A DNA stretch of 64,000 bases from a virus. Taxonomy: Duplodnaviria; Caudoviricetes. Positions 1 through 31,814 of the stretch are shown here, piece after piece. Where the stretch lies: positions 288,001-352,000 of the IMG/VR virus record IMGVR_UViG_3300009031_000221; one strand, written 5' to 3'. The notes under the pieces are model-generated. The model did no database searches, was not told the DNA's origin, and saw nothing but the letters and a program-made list of their open reading frames with translations. Each line of letters opens with the position of its first letter. The stretch's first letter is position 1. Both the position numbers and the translations under genes were made by a program.

Positions 1-25
1 ATGCAAAAGCTCGAGGCCGCAAGGC

Positions 26-427
26 ATGCCTAAGACCCGTGTTGCGATTGTGGGATCCCGAAATTTCAACAACCCCGCATTAATCACGGCCTTTGTCAAC
101 AGGCTTGCCGTCAAGCTCGATGCACAGAATCTGGTTGTGGTATCGGGCGGGGCAAAGGGTGTAGACTCCTATGCGGAAGCGGCGGCTCGATCCCTTGGCA
201 TCGAAGTAGAAAGCATCAAGCCTGACTGGGCAACCTACGGGAAGCGAGCCGGGTTTCTACGGAACACCACCATTGTAGAACATGCTGATCGTATTGTGGC
301 TTTTCATGACGGAATTAGTCGGGGCACTATGGACACTGTTTGGAAAGCCTTCGATTCGGGGAAACCCGTAGTGGTTTTGAATGATGAAGGTCACATAGTC
401 CCTCAAGATAAGTGGCCCCCTCGATAG
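26..427 (+). CDS. SLOG-superfamily (DUF2493/YspA-like) nucleotide-binding protein
   Basis: VAIVGSR, VVSGGAKGVD, AGFLRN and SRGT motifs typical of the SLOG Rossmann fold. Confidence 0.8.
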   Translation: MPKTRVAIVGSRNFNNPALITAFVNRLAVKLDAQNLVVVSGGAKGVDSYAEAAARSLGIEVESIKPDWATYGKRAGFLRNTTIVEHADRIVAFHDGISRGTMDTVWKAFDSGKPVVVLNDEGHIVPQDKWPPR

Positions 428-483
428 ATTTGACATATTAATCAATATCGTTCCTCGCGTGGGGGTATAGCCATGGAGGTTTC

Positions 484-1266
484 ATGAGAGCTATTGATTT
501 GACGGGTACTCAATTTGGCAAACTTACAGCAATACGGGCAACTTCCGAAGGTTCTATTCGGAAGTGGATCTGTCGTTGTACGTGTGGTACGGAAGCGGCT
601 TATTCCACGGGGCAACTAAATTCAGGAAAGCGGCAAAGCTGCGGATGTTCTAGATTCATGAACTTGGAGGGACAGGTTTTTGGTTCATTACTTGTATTGC
701 ATGAAGATGTAAACGCCAAAACGCATAGAACCAAATTTCTATGCCAGTGTGTTTGTGGGGGAAACCGCTTAGTTGAAGGCACTAAGTTGAAAAATGGAAG
801 GGTTCAAAAGTGTCTTCTTTGTGCGAAATCTGTAGATAGATCCAGCAAATACCGATTGCCGGACGGACAAGCATTGATTAATCGGGCATTTGCTAGCTAC
901 CAACACAATGCCCGTACTAAGGGGTTAGCTTTCAATCTACCTAAGGAAATCGCGCTTGAATTATTTGCTCGTGATTGTTTCTACTGTGGTTCTCCGCCGT
1001 CAAACACCCTCACGCATCCAAAGCATAGAGGATCATTTACCTATAATGGCATAGATAGACTAGATAATTCGAAAGGGTATGAACCGGAAAATTGCGTGAC
1101 ATCTTGCCAAATATGCAACTTCATGAAGAACTCTTGGCATGTTGATGCATTTCTGACAATAGTTCATCGCATTGCCAATACGTGTTCACATGTGATAGAT
1201 AATACCGACATGCCAAAAAGCACACCCCTAACGAGACGAAAATCTAGCTGGCCTCAGCCCACTTGA
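484..1266 (+). CDS. HNH homing endonuclease with N-terminal Cys-rich DNA-binding repeats
   Basis: Two IDLTG.FG.L...W.C.C.CG...SCGC-type repeats; C-terminal CFYCG...NGIDRLDNSKGYEPENCVTSCQICNFMK. Confidence 0.8.
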   Translation: MRAIDLTGTQFGKLTAIRATSEGSIRKWICRCTCGTEAAYSTGQLNSGKRQSCGCSRFMNLEGQVFGSLLVLHEDVNAKTHRTKFLCQCVCGGNRLVEGTKLKNGRVQKCLLCAKSVDRSSKYRLPDGQALINRAFASYQHNARTKGLAFNLPKEIALELFARDCFYCGSPPSNTLTHPKHRGSFTYNGIDRLDNSKGYEPENCVTSCQICNFMKNSWHVDAFLTIVHRIANTCSHVIDNTDMPKSTPLTRRKSSWPQPT

Positions 1267-1307
1267 TTTGTGGGTATTGTTTCTGAACATCTAAAGGAAT
1301 ACAAGAC

Positions 1308-2123
1308 ATGGCACACGAACCTGACGCTATTTGCACCGGCACCTATGTACGCAGTGAATATGATGCAGAAGATCTTGGGCATCTAGTTCACGATGAATAC
1401 ACCTATTGCCCGGTTCATGATCCTAGCACATTGAAAAAGGATACGCCCCATCCGATGGATATGTCGGCACCAATCATGGTGGAGTTCCTTTGTGATGAAC
1501 TGTCCAGAACGGACAACACCATCAAATGCGATGTGAAGCAGGCTTTCAAGGATGCAGCACAAACCATCAAAGACTTGCGGGAAGAAGTGGAATATCATCG
1601 GCAAATGAATGCCGATCAAGGGCATTTGATTTGGTGGGCTCTGCGGAAGGCTTTGTACGGTAGGGAAAAGGGCGGGCCGGACTCAAATAAGATCCCCGAC
1701 ATCATCTCAGGGATGCCCCAGGAATGGGAAGTAGTTCAGGAAGCCATCAAGCGATTGGAAGATTCCGACCCTCCATTCGGTTTGGACGCCTACCAGCTTG
1801 GTTGCGCTACGACGGCAAATTATCCTGAAGCCGGAACCGGTTCCATTGCAGCCATTACCTACTGTGTTCTCGGCTTGACCGGTGAAGCCGGGGAAGTCGC
1901 AGACAAATGGAAGAAGGTCATTCGGGGTGACCATGGAGAGGGTGTATTGACTCCTGAAGTCAAGGCATTGATGATCAAGGAAGTCGGGGACACCACGTGG
2001 TACGCCGCTAGGTTGTCCGCTGAACTTGGCGCCCGCCTTTCTGAAGTAGCTCAAGGGAACTTGGATAAGCTCGCATCCCGCAAGGAACGGGGCGTAATCA
2101 AGGGTTCTGGCGACTTGCGCTGA
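1308..2123 (+). CDS. MazG-like NTP pyrophosphohydrolase fused to an unknown N-terminal domain
   Basis: C-terminal LGLTGEAGEVADKWKK...KEVGD..WY...NLDKLASRKERG. Confidence 0.8.
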   Translation: MAHEPDAICTGTYVRSEYDAEDLGHLVHDEYTYCPVHDPSTLKKDTPHPMDMSAPIMVEFLCDELSRTDNTIKCDVKQAFKDAAQTIKDLREEVEYHRQMNADQGHLIWWALRKALYGREKGGPDSNKIPDIISGMPQEWEVVQEAIKRLEDSDPPFGLDAYQLGCATTANYPEAGTGSIAAITYCVLGLTGEAGEVADKWKKVIRGDHGEGVLTPEVKALMIKEVGDTTWYAARLSAELGARLSEVAQGNLDKLASRKERGVIKGSGDLR

Positions 2124-2126
2124 TAG

Positions 2127-2153
2127 ACTTACTTCATGTGAATGCGGCGTAGA
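2127..2153 (+). promoter_or_regulatory. Bipartite promoter-like motif (ACTTACTT-N12-GCGTAGA)
   Basis: One of ten fixed-spacing copies; intergenic, upstream of PheRS. Confidence 0.75.
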
Positions 2154-2161
2154 TCCATCCC

Positions 2162-3208
2162 ATGAAGAACAACTGCACAGAACATATTTTAAGTCACATG
2201 CCACGGGCTAAACACCGTAGGCACAATCATCCTATCGAGATTGTCAAGCGTTTGGTGGCGGAACAATTCCCGGGATTCTTCCTGAGGGATACGTTCTCTC
2301 CTTTCGTTTCAGTCGTAGATTGTTTCGATCGTCTGCGGATTCCCGCAGACCACCCTTCTCGAAGTATGTCCGATACGTACTACTTCGATGATGAAACTGT
2401 TCTCCGTACACACATGACGGCGCACACTGTTCCGATGGCTGACACTCGTAAAGGGGAGGGTCTAGCATCTTTTCTCACCTGTGGCGAGGTCTACCGTCGG
2501 GACGAGATCGACCGGACACACTATCCTGTGTTCCATCAACTGGATGGCTTCTGCGTCACGCCCAATGCTGCCGAGGATCTCCTAGCACGATTGCTTGGTG
2601 TTGCCAAGGCTTTGTTCCCCAATGTCCCCGTTCGAGTCCTGCACGAAGGGGTAGATGCGGGGATCTACTTCCCGTTCACGACACAATCCATCGAGATTGA
2701 AGTGGAACTCAACGGTCAATGGGTTGAAATCCTGGGGGGTGGTGTCGTTCATCCTGACATCATGAAGGCCATCGGGCGCAAAGGTGAAGAGGCCTGGGCG
2801 TTCGGTATGGGGTTGGAACGAATCGCCATGGCCATCTGGGACATTCCAGATATTCGTCTGTTCTGGTCGATAGACTCGAGGTTCCTTGATCAGTTCAGCT
2901 ACGAATCAAGGGCACCATTCAAGCCGTTCTCGAATCATCCCGTATGCTACAAGGACATTGCCTTCTGGTATGACGGTGAAATCCAGGACAATGACCTGTA
3001 TGAGATTGTTCGGGGTATTGCCCCGGACATCATCGAACAGATCAAGCTGCTGGATACATTCACGCATCCGAAGACAGGGCGGAAGTCCAAGTGCTATCGG
3101 ATGGATTTCCGCGATCTCTACCGGACATTGACCAATATAGAAGTCAATGATATCAATGACAAGATTCGAGAGGCAGCGGCATTGACTTTGAATGTCGAAC
3201 TGCGGTAG
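2162..3208 (+). CDS. pheS: Monomeric (mitochondrial/organellar-type) phenylalanyl-tRNA synthetase
   Basis: Class II motif 2 YRRDEIDRTHYPVFHQ, motif 3 WAFGMGLERIAM..DIPDIRLFW, then ferredoxin-fold anticodon-binding domain (KDIAFW...HPKTG..S.CYR...RTLT..EVN). Confidence 0.92.
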   Translation: MKNNCTEHILSHMPRAKHRRHNHPIEIVKRLVAEQFPGFFLRDTFSPFVSVVDCFDRLRIPADHPSRSMSDTYYFDDETVLRTHMTAHTVPMADTRKGEGLASFLTCGEVYRRDEIDRTHYPVFHQLDGFCVTPNAAEDLLARLLGVAKALFPNVPVRVLHEGVDAGIYFPFTTQSIEIEVELNGQWVEILGGGVVHPDIMKAIGRKGEEAWAFGMGLERIAMAIWDIPDIRLFWSIDSRFLDQFSYESRAPFKPFSNHPVCYKDIAFWYDGEIQDNDLYEIVRGIAPDIIEQIKLLDTFTHPKTGRKSKCYRMDFRDLYRTLTNIEVNDINDKIREAAALTLNVELR

Positions 3209-3215
3209 CCCTTAG

Positions 3216-3242
3216 ACTTACTTCTGCATGATTGAGCGTAGA
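3216..3242 (+). promoter_or_regulatory. Bipartite promoter-like motif (ACTTACTT-N12-GCGTAGA)
   Basis: Exact copy between PheRS stop and HD gene. Confidence 0.75.
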
Positions 3243-3280
3243 TGATGTAGGACCTGCAATATGCGGGCGTATAGGAATCT

Positions 3281-3865
3281 ATGACCCAGTTCTCATTCAC
3301 ACTCTCGATCGCATCCCTTGCCCGAACCTTCGCCATCTGGGCGCATGGGGACCAGAAATATGGGGACTTGCCATACGTCCATCACTTGGACGAGGTCGTG
3401 GAGGTTCTCAAGGAGTACGGCTACACGGACGATGATTCGTTGGCGGCGGGCTACCTCCATGATGTGCTGGAGGACAGCAAGATTGCCCGCTACGATGACC
3501 TCGGCTTCGTGTCGCAGGAAGTTCGCTACGCCCTGATGTTTTGCAAGGATGCGGAGGGTCACAACCGCGTCACCCGCAAGGCCGCGACCTATGAGCGATG
3601 CCATCGGGATATCGGGCGGTGGTTGCTGAAGCCCCAGTGCCTGACCTTCGCCCAGGATCCTGATTCCATGGCGTACATCCCCCTTGCCATCCGTACGAAG
3701 GTCGCTGACCGCATCGCCAACGTCCGTAGCAGCAAGGGCACGAAGTCGAGCCTGTTCCACATGTACAAGAAGGAGCGGGACGCATTTCGCTTGGGCTTGT
3801 ACACTCCCGGCGTTTGTGACGCCATGTGGGTCGAATACGATCAACTCCTGGGGGCGCAGGGATGA
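3281..3865 (+). CDS. HD-domain protein, small alarmone hydrolase (SpoT/Mesh1)-like
   Basis: AH.DQKY...PY..HL..V, LHDVLED, KVADRIAN motifs. Confidence 0.8.
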   Translation: MTQFSFTLSIASLARTFAIWAHGDQKYGDLPYVHHLDEVVEVLKEYGYTDDDSLAAGYLHDVLEDSKIARYDDLGFVSQEVRYALMFCKDAEGHNRVTRKAATYERCHRDIGRWLLKPQCLTFAQDPDSMAYIPLAIRTKVADRIANVRSSKGTKSSLFHMYKKERDAFRLGLYTPGVCDAMWVEYDQLLGAQG

Positions 3866-4770
3866 ACGGCATTAACCCCAAGGACATCCCGTACCAGTTC
3901 TCCCAGGTAACAGGGGGACATGCGGAACATGTATCCAAAACGGTGGTGAATCCGGAAGCCCGCTTCCGGGCTCATCCCGTTGGGGCTGCCTACATCCACA
4001 GCTACTATGGCCCCTATGGTTCCAATGATCGCGATTCATTCCGATGGGATGACCACTGGAATCATGTTGACCCTAAGATCTTGCTTGCGGTCTTCACCAT
4101 GGAAGAGTGCTGCCGTCTTTGGACGGATTGCATCTTCATGTCCGACATGTCCAAGTACTGCGAAGATGAACACACGCTCCTGTGGAAAATCAACAATATC
4201 CACTGGCAGTTTGGGTGCCAGCGTAGCTGGAATCTCCTTGTGCGGAACTTGGATGCATTGAAGCGGCTGGACTTCGGCGTGCCGGGGTTTGACGTGCGAA
4301 TCACGCATCCGTGCTCCATCAACATGGTAGGCAGGGCTGCACATGGCCCCTACCTGTACTTGGATGGGGCGCTTGGATTGCTGTTGTACTACAAGGGGGA
4401 ACACGTCCTGACGGTTGGTTTCTCGGTGAATACCGATGGGGTCTACATCGCACAAGTACAACTCCGGCAGAAGAAGGGCAACCGTTTCATCTACAAGCTT
4501 CCCGATCATTACATGGACATGGTATTGGACATGTTCAGGCGTGCTTTCCATGAGGATGACCTGTGGCTCGTGGAAGGGAAAAGCGCTGCTGCCGCAGTGG
4601 TGCGATCCTACGGCAACGGCCCGCATAACGTCACGCCAGAAGTCGAACAACGTATCGTATCGTTGTACAATCGCCCGTTGAGTTCATTCAACAGGACAGA
4701 GCCCGCTTATCAGAGTGGGCGTAATTACACCCGGTTAGTCCCGGCCAAGACCCAAGCACTCGCCGCTTAG
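3862..4770 (+). CDS. Hypothetical protein, possibly DUF535/VirK-like in its C-terminal half
   Basis: Long ORF; ATG 3862 overlaps upstream TGA; LTVGFS...VYIAQVQ segment loosely resembles DUF535. Confidence 0.5.
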   Translation: MNGINPKDIPYQFSQVTGGHAEHVSKTVVNPEARFRAHPVGAAYIHSYYGPYGSNDRDSFRWDDHWNHVDPKILLAVFTMEECCRLWTDCIFMSDMSKYCEDEHTLLWKINNIHWQFGCQRSWNLLVRNLDALKRLDFGVPGFDVRITHPCSINMVGRAAHGPYLYLDGALGLLLYYKGEHVLTVGFSVNTDGVYIAQVQLRQKKGNRFIYKLPDHYMDMVLDMFRRAFHEDDLWLVEGKSAAAAVVRSYGNGPHNVTPEVEQRIVSLYNRPLSSFNRTEPAYQSGRNYTRLVPAKTQALAA

Positions 4771-4780
4771 GAGATTCGTC

Positions 4781-5041
4781 ATGATCAGTTCATTGCTGCC
4801 TGTCAAGGCATTCGATCAGTACACCGTTGCCGAACAAGAGTTCATCGATCAGAGGACTCGTCAGTTGACGACCAACTGGGCGGATCAACAAATCCAGTTC
4901 GGAACCATGCCCAAGGATGATGGCAGGGGGTTGGGATTGGTCTACTTCGAGTACGCCAAAGCCAAGAAGTGGCTCAATGCTGACGGCACCAAGTTGACTT
5001 CCGCCGGCCTCATGGTTGCCGCCCGCTTCCTGAAGCGCTAG
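4781..5041 (+). CDS. Hypothetical protein
   Basis: GGAG RBS, co-directional with upstream operon. Confidence 0.6.
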   Translation: MISSLLPVKAFDQYTVAEQEFIDQRTRQLTTNWADQQIQFGTMPKDDGRGLGLVYFEYAKAKKWLNADGTKLTSAGLMVAARFLKR

Positions 5042-5107
5042 GTCGTAATTCATGGACAAGGTAATCCTCCTCGCCGTTGTGTACCGGGGTCAATCAACAT
5101 TGCAAGC

Positions 5108-5308
5108 ATGAGGAAATTCTCCTGCTTGGAATCATTGAAGGACTATATTGAAACGAATCAAGGGCCCGCATCTTCCACCCTGGTAGCCAGCTTGCATCAT
5201 CGTAGATTAGGCAGCTGGTCGGCTTGGTGGATCGAAGACGGGCACCGGAATATCGAATCCAAGCGTTTGACCCTTGATGAAATGAAGCAAGTCGGCCTTC
5301 GCAGCTAG
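5108..5308 (+). CDS. Hypothetical protein
   Basis: Short ORF filling the gap before a convergent gene. Confidence 0.4.
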   Translation: MRKFSCLESLKDYIETNQGPASSTLVASLHHRRLGSWSAWWIEDGHRNIESKRLTLDEMKQVGLRS

Positions 5309-6105
5309 GCTACTTCGACATGTGTTATCCGTACCTTGTGTGGATTGAACATTGCCACTTCGGGCACGTTATCTACAAGACCTGTCCCATAGTAGACAAC
5401 ACAGTCAAACCCCTTCTTCCTAGCAGCCCTTGCCTGTGCCCGGTTCGCAGTGACCAAGGTATTTTCGGCACGGACTGAAACCGTGTATACCTTCGGACGA
5501 TACTTGTCCGCGTCCAAACCTGCTTCTTCAAGTTGATCATACGCCCAATCGGGCATGCCTGTGCTTTGGCTGAACAAAGATAACGCCCCATCATCCTCTA
5601 TGGATGACTTGAGTTTGCTCCCGATGATGAAACGGCAAATGTCGGCAATTGTATTCGGGTCTACCCCGCCAGCTTCCTTCTCGAGGGCTTCTCCGTAATC
5701 GTCCCCTGGGCCAAGTCCGAAGTAATCCCGAGTCCAAATATCCCAAGCATCATCCCCATGCGTGTATAGCTGTTGCATGAAAGCGCCGGCGGCGTGGTTC
5801 TTCCTCTTCAAGTCATCAATGATAGATGGTTCGAACCCGATGTTCCTGTTAGCGTTGGCATACTTTTCGGCTACATGTTTGGAAGGAGTCAAGAATATGC
5901 CGACACCATAGTAGCTGTCCACTAGCTCCTGACGGCTCTTTTGCAAGTCGAATGTCTGAAATGTCTTGGTTGTCCCATGATAGAGGGTCACGTTTTGTGA
6001 TTCTGTCAAGCCTTCAAGGCCCCAATCTTCCAACCTGAATGTCCTAGCAGCGTGGAATGCCGAAGCTATGAATCTGGATGCGACGTTTTGATACGAAGGT
6101 CTCAT
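5305..6105 (-). CDS. ADP-ribosyltransferase-fold protein (ART-PolyVal-like)
   Basis: LYHGT...F..FD, G.GIFLT....A..YA and GFD.VV...PEVAMFNP motifs. Confidence 0.7.
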   Translation of the reverse strand: MRPSYQNVASRFIASAFHAARTFRLEDWGLEGLTESQNVTLYHGTTKTFQTFDLQKSRQELVDSYYGVGIFLTPSKHVAEKYANANRNIGFEPSIIDDLKRKNHAAGAFMQQLYTHGDDAWDIWTRDYFGLGPGDDYGEALEKEAGGVDPNTIADICRFIIGSKLKSSIEDDGALSLFSQSTGMPDWAYDQLEEAGLDADKYRPKVYTVSVRAENTLVTANRAQARAARKKGFDCVVYYGTGLVDNVPEVAMFNPHKVRITHVEVA

Positions 6106-6130
6106 ACCTACTCTGGTCTATAGGGTCTCT

Positions 6131-6157
6131 ACTTACTTTTCCCACGGGATGCGTAGC
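6131..6157 (+). promoter_or_regulatory. Bipartite promoter-like motif (ACTTACTT-N12-GCGTAGC)
   Basis: Upstream of rIIA. Confidence 0.7.
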
Positions 6158-6194
6158 TAGGATGTATGACCAATGATCCTAAAGGAAGTGCCGG

Positions 6195-8291
6195 ATGCAA
6201 GTTGCCCTAAGCAATCGTGATGTCAAATCAAGTGGTGTAGAAGCTCGTGGTACCTTTGGCATTAGCCACAAGGCACAAGCCCACATCATGACCATCTTGC
6301 GGGATACATTATATTCCGACAAGGTTTTGGCAGTCCTTCGTGAGTATGCTTCGAATGCCTGGGATGCACACAAGCAGTCCGGTAAGGGCCACATTCCTAT
6401 CGAAGTCATGATGCCTACAGCAATGAGCCCGAACTTGGTCATTCGTGACTTTGGTATGGGCATGTCGGAAGACACGGTATTCAACGTGTTCACGCAATAC
6501 GGAGACAGCACTAAGCGCGAGACGAATGACGCTGTGGGCATGATGGGCATCGGTAGCAAGTCCGGCTTCGCCTACTCCGATTCCTTCACGGTGACCTCGT
6601 GGCATGACGGAACCAAGAAAGTCTACATCGCTGTCCTGGATGATTCCGATGTCGGCGAGATCAACAAGATGCACGAGGAACCCTGCGACTTCGATGAAGT
6701 CGGTGTGGAGATCCAGATCGCCGTCCGCCCGGCGGACATCTATGAGTTTCAACGCAAGGCGATCAAGTTGTTCCCGTACTTCTACCCAACCCCCAAGATC
6801 AACTTGGAGATGCCCAAGTACAACCGGAACGTGACAACCCACGGATTCTTTTCCATCAACCGGGAAGAAGATGGGTGGATTGCCGTTCAGGGGTGCATCC
6901 CTTACCGTATCAATATCGCTCAGGTTCAGCCCGAGTTGGAAGCTGCCGGAATTTGGGACGCCCTGTCCCGTACCACCGGCGGATTGTTCTTCCCTATCGG
7001 CGGCGTTCAGGTCAGCGCTTCCCGTGAGGAACTCAAGTACAGCACTTCAACCAAGAAGGCAATCGTTTCCAAATTCACGGAAATGATTGAGTCCTACATC
7101 GCAGACGTGCTTGAAGTCCTGAACAAGGATGATCTTTCCGATTGGGAAAAGCGGCAGAAGGCTTGCTTCATGGAACATACCATGAAGATCGGTATCCCTG
7201 CCAAGTACAAGGATTGGGCACGCTATCAGGTGAACCTCTGGGGTCAAGGGACGGAGCATAAGGAACCGCAAACATTCATTCTTCTTCGTGGCAACTCCCA
7301 AACTAACAGTATCGGTGTGGATGTTCGGACTCGATTCGTCATCAAGGATGATCCTCGTTCCATGGAAGGGTTTCGGTTGGAACCCTCCGATGTAGTAGTT
7401 CGTTCTTTGCGGGATGCGCCTATTGATGCTGTGGTCGATGAATTGGAAACCTACATCGCTTTGAATCACCTGACGGGCATTCGGATTGCCCGAATCTCGG
7501 ATATGAATTGGAACCAGCCTTACCGATCACAGGCAATGCAAAGGAAGCAACAAGGTCCCGTCAACCAGAAGTACTTGGTCAAGAGCTTCCAGCTAAAGGA
7601 TGACACGCTCAACCGTTCCACGCTGTCTGAAAACTGGGATATTGTAACCCGGGAACCAACGGATGAGGACGTGTTTGTTATCATTGAGGCTTTCAAGGTT
7701 CCGGACGTGTCTGACTTTTACCGGCAAATGGTGAAAGATCGGGAAGCTGCCAAGGCCTTGGGCTTCACCATGCCCACGGTCTACGGCTATAAATCGACGG
7801 AGAAGACCCCCATCAAGGTCAAGGATTGCAAGGGCACGGAATACACGAAGTGGCGTGAGAAGTTCATCATGGACATGATGACTCCGAAGCGGATTGAAGT
7901 CCTTCAGCAACTCCGGTGGTCTACGTTGTTCCACGATATGCACGCCTGGGAGATTGCAGACCGCGGGGATCTTCCTGTGATTACTGCGGATCTGCGGAAG
8001 AACCTGGGAGAGCATCCTGTGACTCTCATGTTCGAGAAGCACGCGAAGTCCAAGGTGCTTCTCGCGGGATTGCCCCACGGCATTTCCACACACCTGTTGC
8101 ATCTGTTGGCAGGCGTGACATTAGAAGTCCCTTTTGACGGGCGTAATGCCTACAAGGCTGTGACAGACAACTATCCCCTCATCGCAGTAAGCGGCGGGGT
8201 TGCCCTCCTCTGCAAGGAACATCGTTTGCACTGGATGAATTACATCAAGCTGGTTGATCAGGTAGCTGCAATCGCTGCCCATAATGTGTAG
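6195..8291 (+). CDS. rIIA: rIIA-like protein (N-terminal GHKL ATPase)
   Basis: LYSDKVLAVLREYASNAWDAH, IRDFG.GMS, STKR..ND..G..GIGSKS.FAYSDSFTV; adjacent to rIIB. Confidence 0.88.
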   Translation: MQVALSNRDVKSSGVEARGTFGISHKAQAHIMTILRDTLYSDKVLAVLREYASNAWDAHKQSGKGHIPIEVMMPTAMSPNLVIRDFGMGMSEDTVFNVFTQYGDSTKRETNDAVGMMGIGSKSGFAYSDSFTVTSWHDGTKKVYIAVLDDSDVGEINKMHEEPCDFDEVGVEIQIAVRPADIYEFQRKAIKLFPYFYPTPKINLEMPKYNRNVTTHGFFSINREEDGWIAVQGCIPYRINIAQVQPELEAAGIWDALSRTTGGLFFPIGGVQVSASREELKYSTSTKKAIVSKFTEMIESYIADVLEVLNKDDLSDWEKRQKACFMEHTMKIGIPAKYKDWARYQVNLWGQGTEHKEPQTFILLRGNSQTNSIGVDVRTRFVIKDDPRSMEGFRLEPSDVVVRSLRDAPIDAVVDELETYIALNHLTGIRIARISDMNWNQPYRSQAMQRKQQGPVNQKYLVKSFQLKDDTLNRSTLSENWDIVTREPTDEDVFVIIEAFKVPDVSDFYRQMVKDREAAKALGFTMPTVYGYKSTEKTPIKVKDCKGTEYTKWREKFIMDMMTPKRIEVLQQLRWSTLFHDMHAWEIADRGDLPVITADLRKNLGEHPVTLMFEKHAKSKVLLAGLPHGISTHLLHLLAGVTLEVPFDGRNAYKAVTDNYPLIAVSGGVALLCKEHRLHWMNYIKLVDQVAAIAAHNV

Positions 8292-8327
8292 AACATAACG
8301 GACCCCTATTACAACTCAGAGGACACC

Positions 8328-9278
8328 ATGACCAAGATTTCATATACCATCACCAACGAATCCATCAGCGTCTTTTATGAAGGCCAGATGCACACCGTCC
8401 AGAACGGGACGCCCAACTTCAAGGGGCTGCAGCAGGCAATTATCAACGATGACTTCGATAGCATCCCCAAGTTCCTCACGGTTGCCAAGACCGTCGAGTC
8501 ATGGGCTCAGGGAGACTTCAAGGTCGAAGGCGAGAAAGTCCTGTACCAGGGCGAGGAACTCCCAAGCGAACTGAATGCCCGCATCCTTGCAATGGCCGCT
8601 CAGGGTTCCGACCCCAAGGGATTGCTGAAGTTCTGGGAGCGCCTGCAGTTGAACCCCTCCATGCGTTCCGTGGAGCAGCTCTACACGTTCCTCGTTCACG
8701 AGGGTATCCCCATCACCGATGATGGCTACTTCCTCGCCTACAAGGGCGTCCGCCATGACTACAAGGATGTCCACTCTGGCACGATCGACAACTCCCCGGG
8801 ATCTGAGCCCTTCATGGCACGTAACAAGATCAGTGATGATCCCCGCCAGCCTTGTCATCAGGGATTGCACGTTGGCGCCTTGCGTTACGCCAAGAGCTTC
8901 GGCCCTACGGTAGTCATCTGCCAGGTAGACCCGGCAGACGTTGTTTGCGTCCCCTACGATTCCAGCGCGGAAAAGATGCGGGTATGCCGGTACAAGGTCA
9001 TCGGAAACTACGGTTCCAAGCTGGATAACGTATCCATCGACGCGGCGGACTTGCCTCAGGTTGACGCCAAGACGCCCAAGGCTTCCAAGGCTGCCAAGGG
9101 AAAGCCTGTCAGCACCTCGAAGTTCGCCATCATGTCGGAAGCGGATCTCATGGAGCAGCACCTTGATGCACTCCGTAGCTACGCTGCCAATGAACTCAAG
9201 ATCGTGGGCGCATCGAAGATCCCCGGTGGCCGGTTGATGCTGGTCAAGCGGATCATCGAAGTTCGCGGCGAGGCGTAA
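8328..9278 (+). CDS. rIIB: rIIB-like protein
   Basis: KFWERL..NPS.RSVEQLY.FL, ITDDGYFLAYKGV, C..GLHVG, VDPADVV.VP.D....K.RVC.YKV. Confidence 0.88.
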   Translation: MTKISYTITNESISVFYEGQMHTVQNGTPNFKGLQQAIINDDFDSIPKFLTVAKTVESWAQGDFKVEGEKVLYQGEELPSELNARILAMAAQGSDPKGLLKFWERLQLNPSMRSVEQLYTFLVHEGIPITDDGYFLAYKGVRHDYKDVHSGTIDNSPGSEPFMARNKISDDPRQPCHQGLHVGALRYAKSFGPTVVICQVDPADVVCVPYDSSAEKMRVCRYKVIGNYGSKLDNVSIDAADLPQVDAKTPKASKAAKGKPVSTSKFAIMSEADLMEQHLDALRSYAANELKIVGASKIPGGRLMLVKRIIEVRGEA

Positions 9279-16777: not shown

Positions 16778-17746
16778 TCAATATGACGTGGTGGTCGGGG
16801 AGATGCCATAATACAGAATCTGTTGCTTGACAAGACCTTCATAGACACCAAATCGATTTGCTATAATGGGTATTGGTACCCCTTGATCAATTAATACTTG
16901 AATTATTTCTTTTGGCAAACTGAGTTTGGGCCTGCGTCCTGTATATGTACTTGTGACCAAGTGATGGAGGTCTGCATCAGGCCATGTCCGCTGCCTACCT
17001 TTGGTATTACCAAGGGTGGATAGCGCTGTATGGATAAACCCTATAGGGACCTTCATACCCAGGGCTATATGCTTAGGGGTGCTGCCTGCATCGGTCAGTT
17101 GTCGTACTAGTGCTAGGTCAATCATGCTATTGACTGCATCCATGTCACGACAAAGAAACCCTGCCGCTAACTTATAGCGTAGGGTATCCAGGATATAAGG
17201 CTTGATGATATCGAGGAAGGCACGTGCTTGGACTTCTCCTCGAACCACGATACGTGATGAAGTCCCAACCTCAGCCATCGCTTGAATGCCGAAGTGTGCA
17301 AGGATGGCAAGGGCTACGTCATGACTACGTTCATGACATGAGAACGAGGGCCAGTGTTGGTGCATGCCGTCATCCATATACCACACTGCTAGGGCTAAGG
17401 GTGTCATCATAGGTATGACAGACTCATGGAACTTCTTACGGAGCTTGCCGTCACATGATGGCGTAGAATTGGCATAGAACATTTCCCACCAAGGAAGCAA
17501 TTCATCGTATTTCCGTACACGGAAGCCTACAGCCCCTTGATGAGTAGCCTTCTTTGGGGGTACCTCTGTTAATGTTCCTGCATAATCGCCCCAGTATGCC
17601 ATCTTCCACAGGACATATTCCAACTGCCCCTTGGCATGGAATTCACTATAGGACGCACCTGTGGCGCCACGGCCTAGGGATCCATCCCCAAGCATGGATC
17701 CCAGTAATATTGATTGTAGTGGTTCGGTCAAAACGAGATTTTTCAT
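16778..17746 (-). mobile_element. Free-standing LAGLIDADG homing endonuclease with C-terminal HTH-like repeats
   Basis: ILLGSMLGDG and LALAVWYMDDG motifs, YVLWK. Confidence 0.85.
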
Positions 17747-30782: not shown

Positions 30783-31814
30783 ATGGTTCTAGGCATGGAG
30801 GTGCCTATGTCTGATCTACCCAATATCATCGAATTCGCAGCTAGCGTTCTCGATATTCATCTAACACCCGTTCAATGTGTCATATTGAAAGCACATTACG
30901 GTATCCCGTTGGATACAGAGACCCTGTTTGAGATATGTACGCCCCAACTGGCGACGGGGCAATTTATCGTAAACACCTGGACGGAAGCAAAGTACTTGGA
31001 ATACTTGTACTATGAAGGCAGGTCGAATATCCGAGAGGTAGACCACGAACGGCGGGAACTCGTCTTGGCGAGCGGCAGACGGAGTGGCAAGGGGATGCTT
31101 GGGTGCATCATTGCTGCCTATGAGGCATACAAGTTGGCATGGAAGGGCGATCCGCAGGCCTACTACGGTTTGCCCCCAAGCACCGTCCTACAGATTCTGT
31201 TGGTGGGTACCGACAAGGATCAGGCGGGGCTCATTCTTCATGAGGTCAATGGATTCCTCCGTAGCACTCCCCTGAATGACCATCGTGCGAACAATACGCA
31301 GACCTACATGCGATTCCAGACACGGAAGGACATTGATACCTACGGGTCATGGGTGGATGACTTGACGGCAAAGGCCTCTATCAAGGTGACTGCAACGTCT
31401 AGCAATCACCAAGGGCTTCGTGGAGCCGGCAATATTTGTGTCATTTTAGATGAGTTGGCACATTACAAGGAAGCCGAGAACGTCTACCATGCCATCATGC
31501 CTTCGATCATGCTCTTCTCCAAGAAGGCGGAGGACAAGCGCACACCCGTTGGCTCATGTGAAGGGCGTTTGGTAAGCCTGTCAACCCCGAATGGGAAGCG
31601 TGGCATGTTCCACAAGTTGTTCATGGCGGGATTCAATGAAAAGCGTAGCGACAACATGCTGTGCTTGCAAATCCCGACTTGGGAAGCGAATCCGTCTATT
31701 CCGATGGAATTCTACACGGAAATGTACGAACGTCAGCCCAAGTACTTTGGCGTGGAATACGGGGCACACTTCGTAGACCTGTGTTGCCCTCAGTGCGGGT
31801 GCGAATTGGCCTAG
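30783..31814 (+). CDS. Terminase large subunit ATPase-domain-only paralog (no nuclease domain)
   Basis: LTPVQ..ILK, GRRSGK, DKDQA, GLRG.....ILDELAH, LSTPNGKRG.F, PTWE.NP, EYGA.F.D, then stop; likely start ATG 30807. Confidence 0.8.
   Translation: MVLGMEVPMSDLPNIIEFAASVLDIHLTPVQCVILKAHYGIPLDTETLFEICTPQLATGQFIVNTWTEAKYLEYLYYEGRSNIREVDHERRELVLASGRRSGKGMLGCIIAAYEAYKLAWKGDPQAYYGLPPSTVLQILLVGTDKDQAGLILHEVNGFLRSTPLNDHRANNTQTYMRFQTRKDIDTYGSWVDDLTAKASIKVTATSSNHQGLRGAGNICVILDELAHYKEAENVYHAIMPSIMLFSKKAEDKRTPVGSCEGRLVSLSTPNGKRGMFHKLFMAGFNEKRSDNMLCLQIPTWEANPSIPMEFYTEMYERQPKYFGVEYGAHFVDLCCPQCGCELA

Follow-up and report, generated by a model that had tools for sequence, protein, structure and literature searches.

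Known forms of phenylalanyl-tRNA synthetase

In reviews, phenylalanyl-tRNA synthetases (PheRS) are divided into three forms, the monomer being mitochondrial and the prokaryotic tetramer being 'conserved in all known species' (PMC3275996), and the same view of a mitochondrial monomer and a universal prokaryotic tetramer is presented elsewhere (PMC4494062). The monomer represents an established enzyme family, PheRS-M (PMC11580382). Huge phages carry aminoacyl-tRNA synthetases (aaRS), up to 15 per genome, whose proposed role during infection is the charging of phage tRNA variants (PMC7162821). No mention of the one-chain PheRS type was found in the text of that study or in the supplements searched, which name only a bacterial PheS alpha reference. 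Here, a one-chain PheRS gene is described at positions 2162-3208 of a 64,000-nucleotide stretch of phage DNA (hereafter the window), corresponding to positions 288001-352000 of the 536,053-bp Caudoviricetes record in IMG/VR, IMGVR_UViG_3300009031_000221, for which CheckV gives a completeness of 100%. The source sequence is present in groundwater metagenome runs, and no RNA run is listed as containing it. This gene probably encodes a working, editing-free, one-chain PheRS made during infection; we infer its activity, monomeric state, substrates, expression and selective reason from the comparisons below.

The closest described enzyme is human mitochondrial PheRS (FARS2; structures 3cmq and 3tup; PheRS-M of AARS Online; TIGR00469), which is likewise a single chain composed of a catalytic core and a B8-like domain, with no editing domain. 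It has the same catalytic residues and 36% identity to the phage protein over the structural alignment. The latter differs in being bacteriophage-encoded and in having no N-terminal targeting sequence. With regard to its genome, the phage resembles the huge phages of Al-Shayeb et al. 2020 (PMC7162821) in exceeding 500 kb and in encoding many tRNAs along with a synthetase, but only one synthetase is found here.

A single-chain PheRS gene in a phage genome

The open reading frame (ORF) listing revealed an uninterrupted frame of 348 codons, from ATG to TAG, on the plus strand of the window. The gene and its domains are as follows:

2162..3208, plus strand: single-chain mitochondrial-type PheRS gene, 348 aa and stop codon (ORF, TIGR00469, human mitochondrial PheRS match, AlphaFold2 model)
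2207..2896, plus strand: class II catalytic core at aa 16-245, comprising the Phe pocket and class II motifs 2 and 3 (Pfam PF01409 tRNA-synt_2d, E 9.7e-48)
2930..3205, plus strand: ferredoxin-fold anticodon-binding domain FDX-ACB, aa 257-348 (Pfam PF03147, E 8.2e-19)

An earlier reading of this DNA made from its letters alone (hereafter the sequence-only reading) had proposed that this 348-aa ORF fuses a class II core directly to a ferredoxin-fold domain, and the ORF listing and Pfam (PF01409/PF03147) agree with it, leaving a linker of just 11 residues between the two domains. The FDX-ACB domain is a homolog of B8, a domain of the bacterial beta subunit, and aligns to positions 692-798 of the pheT_bact model. 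Among the curated NCBIfam models, only TIGR00469 (pheS_mito) was passed, with 345.8 bits against a cutoff of 258.35, while the protein missed the cutoffs of bacterial PheS alpha (TIGR00468; 162.8 bits vs 237.45), of PheT (45 bits vs 403) and of the SrmL family described below (NF051887; 216.3 bits vs 300). The passed model, together with the rIIA and rIIB genes, a terminase fragment, a virion protein and HNH endonucleases encoded by the same genome, bears out the sequence-only reading of a one-chain mitochondrial-type PheRS in a bacteriophage.

The closest solved structures are those of human mitochondrial PheRS (E ~3e-77). They align as two blocks because the human protein has about 60 additional residues between positions 131 and 168 of the phage protein, an insertion of opisthokont enzymes that the phage PheRS lacks, and the crystallised human chains comprise 405-415 residues as compared with 348. 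An AlphaFold2 model built with 33 homologs reached a mean predicted local distance difference test (pLDDT) score of 92.1. Superposed by Foldseek, this predicted fold matches the closed state of the human enzyme (3cmq, 8p8x) with a query TM-score (TMq) of 0.91-0.92, and the tRNA-bound open state 3tup with a TMq of 0.67.

The public protein record for the gene is truncated to 280 aa, or 80% of the ORF, and apparently starts at an internal Met; the conserved N-terminal part (window 2162-2365) is thus absent from database copies. The 348-aa reading is correct, since the alignments with homologs, that with the human enzyme among them, begin at residue 3. The same alignments leave no N-terminal extension on the phage protein. 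Encoded by a phage genome and devoid of such an extension, it is a member of the PheRS-M enzyme family and not an organellar protein.

Catalytic and anticodon-binding residues

Forty-eight positions of the catalytic core were compared across eukaryotic mitochondrial enzymes, two phage groups, giant viruses, SrmL, bacteria of the Candidate Phyla Radiation (CPR) and bacterial alpha subunits. The phage enzyme retains all residues that do not vary among true PheRS. These include H64, S66 and R67 of the HPSR loop; the motif 2 arginine and FHQ segment (R112, F124, H125, Q126, D128, the last being E in most eukaryotes); the FPFT wall of the Phe pocket (F170, F172); the GxG segment (G192, G194) and A213; and the GxGxER of motif 3 (G215, G217, E219, R220). 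Five further residues, H120, P171, T173, S176 and E178, likewise agree with what is conserved in the mitochondrial PheRS of eukaryotes and in PheS alpha of bacteria. The conservation itself was computed, and the roles given to these residues, like their mapping to Thermus thermophilus numbering, follow the T. thermophilus structures. In the anticodon-binding domain, the family-wide residues D298, F300, S309, Y312 and R313 are all present, and the loop reads HPKTG, which it shares with eukaryotes and giant viruses, the loops of the large phage clade and of SrmL being shortened by deletions. The four 'organellar signatures' named by the sequence-only reading are all present, but HPKTG alone proved specific to the eukaryote-like enzymes; DHPSR, DTYY and IPDIRLFW occupy positions that are conserved in bacterial PheS alpha as well.

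A related protein is SrmL, named by NCBI 'PheS-related mystery ligase' (NF051887), which occurs in Bacteroidota (loci L006-L026, e.g. L011:2998-4029; the Sphingobacterium protein scores 336.3 bits with a cutoff of 300). With 344 aa and 38-42% identity to the phage PheRS, it has the same two-domain architecture, but is a cellular paralog found beside canonical PheST and has a shorter loop in its anticodon-binding domain. The genes next to it in Sphingobacterium, compared with NCBIfam models, offered no hint of a function. The phage protein could, like SrmL, be a non-canonical ligase transferring Phe-AMP onto another acceptor, such as a tRNA-like RNA or a small molecule, a possibility to which the placement of SrmL in the same unresolved clade, its retained catalytic residues and the tRNA-like gene predicted by ARAGORN close to those for tRNA-Phe (anticodon TGAA, four bases) all lend something. 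We consider it highly improbable: the phage protein scores 216 with an SrmL cutoff of 300, yet 346 with a pheS_mito cutoff of 258, and falls outside the SrmL clade (support 100/100). SrmL proteins also depart from the PheRS catalytic set by E178Q, E219D and, mostly, H84Q, whereas the phage enzyme has E at positions 178 and 219, like true PheRS, in addition to a eukaryote-like anticodon-binding loop and cognate tRNA-Phe genes in its genome.

A lone synthetase and the tRNAs of the phage

Searches of the 536-kb genome with pheT_bact returned a single match, the C-terminal domain of the PheRS ORF itself, and neither a beta subunit nor a B3/B4 editing domain is encoded by the phage according to this search. 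The self-sufficiency advanced by the sequence-only reading, in which a beta subunit would be unneeded, is consistent with the lack of pheT elsewhere in this genome. Ten other aaRS families (Pfam tRNA-synt_1, 1b, 1c, 1d, 1e, 1g, 2, 2b, 2c and 2e) had no match in the phage genome, in searches for which control genomes were positive. PheRS is thus the only synthetase detected in a genome that, as predicted by ARAGORN, carries 68 tRNA genes and a tmRNA. A search for tRNA-Phe elsewhere in the genome, as the sequence-only reading had proposed, identified three tRNA-Phe(GAA) genes at 210451-210843, strongly divergent from each other, two of which have the usual A73. The tRNA-like gene with the TGAA anticodon is 89 nt long and lies at 213498-213586, also outside the window.

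The occurrence of a single aaRS beside 68 tRNAs would point to a Phe-specific problem rather than to general translational autonomy, and a monomer has no subunit interface or editing domain in common with PheST. A functional PheRS could accordingly have been selected as a replacement resisting whatever disables the host PheST, be it a defence system, a phage inhibitor or a pheST shut-off, and not as a general translation booster. This appears unlikely, as no known defence or phage factor directed against PheRS or tRNA-Phe was found and as other phages with the one-chain PheRS have several more synthetases: TrpRS and TyrRS are common in them, and two (G017 and G027) carry many further ones.

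A gene native to the phage

The PheRS gene belongs to a block of same-strand genes, of which the following surround it:

26..427, plus strand: SLOG-family gene (YAcAr / DprA-like), first of the block (Pfam PF10686, PF02481, PF18306)
1308..2123, plus strand: MazG-like nucleotide pyrophosphohydrolase, upstream neighbour (PHROG 229, E 2e-33; Pfam MazG)
2124..2154, plus strand: promoter-like motif (TAGACTTACTTC, 11 nt, GCGTAGAT), separated from the PheRS ATG by 7 nt
3213..3243, plus strand: second copy of the motif, putatively serving the downstream HD_4 gene
3281..3865, plus strand: HD_4 phosphohydrolase, from the Pfam family of RelA/SpoT-type hydrolase domains, downstream neighbour (PF13328, 28.2 bits vs a cutoff of 27.2; PHROG 990)

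Several lines of evidence establish that the gene is native to this phage, namely its GC content, the promoter-like motif, synteny with a relative and selection. The GC content is 51.1% for the gene and 52.4% for the genome. The nearest homolog (P0002; 70% identity) is encoded on a 9.5-kb contig from a different sample (L122), where a 79%-identical MazG gene lies directly upstream of PheRS and HD_4 genes are also found nearby; nine further genes are shared between this contig and the phage genome, at positions 276-291 kb and, for one of them, at 502 kb. Compared with this ortholog, the phage PheRS gene has a dN/dS of 0.077, with a saturated dS, a value that indicates purifying selection. A 207,712-bp Logan contig matches window positions 1-6200 without any difference, although it possibly derives from the source sample and does not provide independent support.

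These data bear on whether the gene could be an assembly chimera, a cellular contaminant or a decaying passenger without any role in the phage. The truncated public gene call and the several homologs found in metagenome-assembled genomes (MAGs) labelled as bacteria, archaea or moss might be read that way. Against this stand the synteny with a relative from a different sample, the phage-typical upstream motif, a GC content like that of the genome, the single contig spanning the locus, the low dN/dS and a frame with no frameshift or stop; moreover, the oddly labelled 'Berkiella' MAG homolog itself shows phage synteny. A chimera at this locus, which the sequence-only reading had named as a potential flaw, or a decaying passenger is therefore so improbable as to be close to negligible.

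The intergenic motif, with the consensus TAGRCTTACTTC, 11-12 nt and GCGTAGAT, precedes many genes of this phage. Its first half has 81 occurrences in the genome (allowing up to two mismatches), most of which are followed by GCGTAGAT and a gene start; other copies in the window lie on the minus strand around 27119, 46252, 51437 and 60335. A role as promoter is suggested by this distribution, and no consensus promoter was found ahead of the PheRS gene in a sigma-70 scan. A GGAGG-type ribosome-binding site is usually located 3' of the motif but is missing before the PheRS gene, where reading the sequence between the motif and the ATG revealed no Shine-Dalgarno element. If the motif is a promoter, the PheRS mRNA would consequently be nearly leaderless.

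Distribution in viruses and cells

Database searches identified 4415 relatives in the protein collection (E <1e-10), at most about 50% identical except for the 70% ortholog, and 288 clusters in a library clustered at 50% (E <1e-30). In genome contigs, relatives were found by an alignment-based scan, a single-protein scan having yielded none. This approach detected 39 loci with a one-chain PheRS in IMG/VR, and at least 30 phage-like records carry one. Thirty of the IMG/VR records with PheRS, giant-virus MAGs not being among them, were searched for marker genes: a homolog of the rIIA of this phage occurs in 10 of the 30. No match to the capsid family PF04451 of nucleocytoplasmic large DNA viruses (NCLDV) was obtained in the 30 viral records, a weak negative since the control genomes cannot show this family. 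Many IMG/VR records share the putative split NAD-ligase genes of this phage, which adjoin PheRS there. None of 50,697 deposited phage genomes covers 80% of the PheRS, the best match being a 634-kb uncultured phage with 31% identity. Five aaRS families tested in four other PheRS-carrying phages (G025, G004, G003 and G019) were not found.

Among the relatives are the 355-aa enzymes of a large clade of uncultivated huge phages (IMG/VR loci L085-L098, L103, L106, L116, L120 and L121), which have the same architecture and 44-47% identity to the phage PheRS. Their records share rIIA and the putative split NAD-ligase genes with this genome, but in them PheRS adjoins the putative ligase halves in place of MazG and HD_4. 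These enzymes have a loop in the anticodon domain that is shorter by two residues and a core with five extra residues between positions 131 and 168 of the query. Pfam analysis of genes adjoining PheRS in related phages provided no functional lead. One 449-aa homolog of this clade (P0095) has additional HNH domains (PF01844, PF14279), which suggests a homing-endonuclease insertion into, or fusion with, a phage PheRS gene.

The monomer is also encoded by giant-virus MAG contigs and low-GC viral records (L107, L109, L111, L113, L114, L117, L118 and L119), one of 1.47 Mb. The one-chain PheRS is common to viruses of eukaryotes and of bacteria, the giant-virus sequences forming a clade with support 98/89.

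Regarding cells, a scan of one genome per prokaryotic species revealed the full-length type in Bacteroidota (as SrmL), in Fibrobacterota, in many CPR lineages and in a few MAG contigs. The monomeric PheRS of CPR/Patescibacteria and Fibrobacterota has the same fused architecture and 35-41% identity to the phage enzyme, and forms a separate clade (100/99). A PheT search in 27 monomer-carrying genomes found canonical PheT as well in Bacteroidota, Fibrobacterota, Gracilibacteria/Peribacteria, Berkiella and Tissierellia; Gracilibacteria and Peribacteria hold both PheRS forms, with pheT genes that contain TGA. Where bacteria outside the CPR have the one-chain type at all, it is only as an extra paralog beside canonical PheST. 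Seven small CPR genomes (L027, L031, L033, L041, L029, L034 and L038; G031-G034 and G038-G040) lack a full-length pheT, their sole match to the PheT model being the C-terminal domain of the monomer itself. Within the limits of MAG completeness, the monomer appears from these searches to be their only PheRS. The monomer, given by the sequence-only reading as typical of mitochondria and plastids, is not confined to organelles, occurring as it does in phages, giant-virus MAGs, Bacteroidota, Fibrobacterota and CPR. The caution of that reading that homologs widespread in ordinary bacteria would reduce the novelty is borne out in part, by the Bacteroidota and Fibrobacterota paralogs and by CPR.

Several homologs (L003, P0026, L004 and L005) come from assemblies that bear a bacterial, archaeal or moss label. 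The 'Candidatus Berkiella' MAG contig (L003) has PheRS and the split-ligase genes arranged as in the huge-phage clade, and the 'Sphagnum balticum' protein (P0026) groups inside this clade; these are probably mis-binned phage contigs. The Methanobacteriota MAG sequence (L005) falls among eukaryotic sequences in the FastTree phylogeny.

The phage PheRS thus belongs to known kinds, phage aaRS and PheRS-M, and is one of many such phage genes rather than unique. No report of a one-chain PheRS in phages or CPR bacteria was found in the literature searched, most subscription journals being outside its scope, and the wide viral and CPR distribution of the 'mitochondrial' PheRS appears to be undescribed.

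Phylogeny and origin

Three trees were rooted on bacterial alpha subunits: a FastTree phylogeny (n=323), a quick IQ-TREE (n=103) and a careful IQ-TREE under LG+C20 with posterior mean site frequencies (PMSF; n=95). Eukaryote labels (Branchiostoma, Salpingoeca, Coemansia, Entophlyctis, Neoconidiobolus, Euglena, Pteridium, Prototheca, Aphanomyces, Mayamaea and Vitrella) were taken from cluster names. All fused PheRS proteins group together (support 100/100), and the best-supported deep split (98/96) places the CPR and Fibrobacterota clade opposite all the others. The phage PheRS and its 70% ortholog pair with full support (100/100) within a group of 17 sequences (94/90) that includes the 355-aa huge-phage clade (100/98). 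Judged from these phylogenies, the phage PheRS is not a recent capture from any sampled eukaryote and represents an old phage lineage of the gene. A sister relationship between eukaryotes and a clade of viral and SrmL sequences, with an SH-like approximate likelihood ratio test (SH-aLRT) value of 97 in the quick tree, was not retained, as the backbone collapses in the careful tree.

Approximately unbiased (AU) tests did not reject eukaryote monophyly (p 0.25), and a tree that places the alpha outgroup with the eukaryotes was not rejected either (p 0.47); these results are compatible with eukaryotes, bacteria or phages as the original owners of the gene. With an unsettled backbone and root, the link to the origin of organellar PheRS drawn in the sequence-only reading would be tentative. 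A phage-type donor has already been proposed for the mitochondrial RNA polymerase, which is phage-like, the Twinkle helicase and DNA polymerase gamma. By a conceivable but doubtful scenario, the one-chain PheRS arose in CPR-like bacteria or huge phages and was long carried by phages, eukaryotes having acquired their mitochondrial enzyme from such a donor, with giant-virus PheRS and SrmL as offshoots of the same viral pool. The origin of mitochondrial PheRS becomes testable with a sampling far richer than eukaryotes alone.

Proposed function

If the phage enzyme works like its human mitochondrial homolog, Phe and ATP would be bound by the N-terminal class II core, which would form Phe-AMP, and the C-terminal ferredoxin-fold domain would read the GAA anticodon. 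Upon tRNA binding, this domain would swing from the closed state, which is that of the model, to the open state, Phe then being passed on to the 3' terminus of tRNA-Phe. The enzyme would work without a beta subunit, and none is encoded. The likely substrates are the three tRNA-Phe(GAA) of the phage together with host tRNA-Phe, and the likely benefit would be a supply of Phe-tRNA, and hence a late phage translation, freed from the four-subunit PheST of the host. Since PheRS lies between MazG and a RelA/SpoT-type HD hydrolase, it may further be part of a module keeping uncharged tRNA and alarmone signalling low, the most speculative element of this proposal.

A number of observations weigh against a working PheRS made during infection. 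The conserved residues would indicate a competence for adenylate formation better than the charging of tRNA-Phe, because SrmL, a member of the same broad clade, keeps nearly identical catalytic residues. Of the three tRNA-Phe genes, one carries G73 where A73 is usual. Without a Shine-Dalgarno element, the production of PheRS would need near-leaderless translation. The adjacency with MazG and HD_4 was observed only in this phage and its close relative, PheRS having other neighbours in the 355-aa clade. Nor does this reading account for Phe being the only amino acid served.

The broader interest of this gene lies in the recurrence of the monomer among huge phages and giant viruses, and in its apparently being the sole PheRS of some CPR bacteria. 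A compact, editing-free PheRS of 348 aa, presumably working in the bacterial cytoplasm, would also be of interest for minimal or orthogonal translation systems. Finally, the locus raises the question of why a phage with 68 tRNAs brings exactly one synthetase, and why for Phe.

Other features of the phage genome

Beyond the PheRS block, whose flanking genes also include an HNH endonuclease, the window contains the following features:

5305-6105, minus strand: ART-PolyVal ADP-ribosyltransferase-domain protein, 266 aa, between the PheRS block and rIIA
6195..9278, plus strand: rIIA and rIIB, phage hallmarks (PHROG 612, E 2e-97; PHROG 609, E 8e-70)
16778-17746: LAGLIDADG homing endonuclease
30783-31814: fragment of the terminase large subunit, a 343-aa ORF with a partial match only

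A virion structural protein is also encoded farther along the window. The partial terminase and the LAGLIDADG endonuclease suggest that mobile elements may split genes in this phage genome. The two ends of the record are identical over nine bases (AGGACGAAG; positions 1-9 and 536045-536053), which fits a circular or circularly permuted assembly, though the record is classed as linear. ARAGORN also predicted, outside the window, a 90-nt tRNA with the anticodon TTA at 483473-483562, which would read the UAA stop codon.

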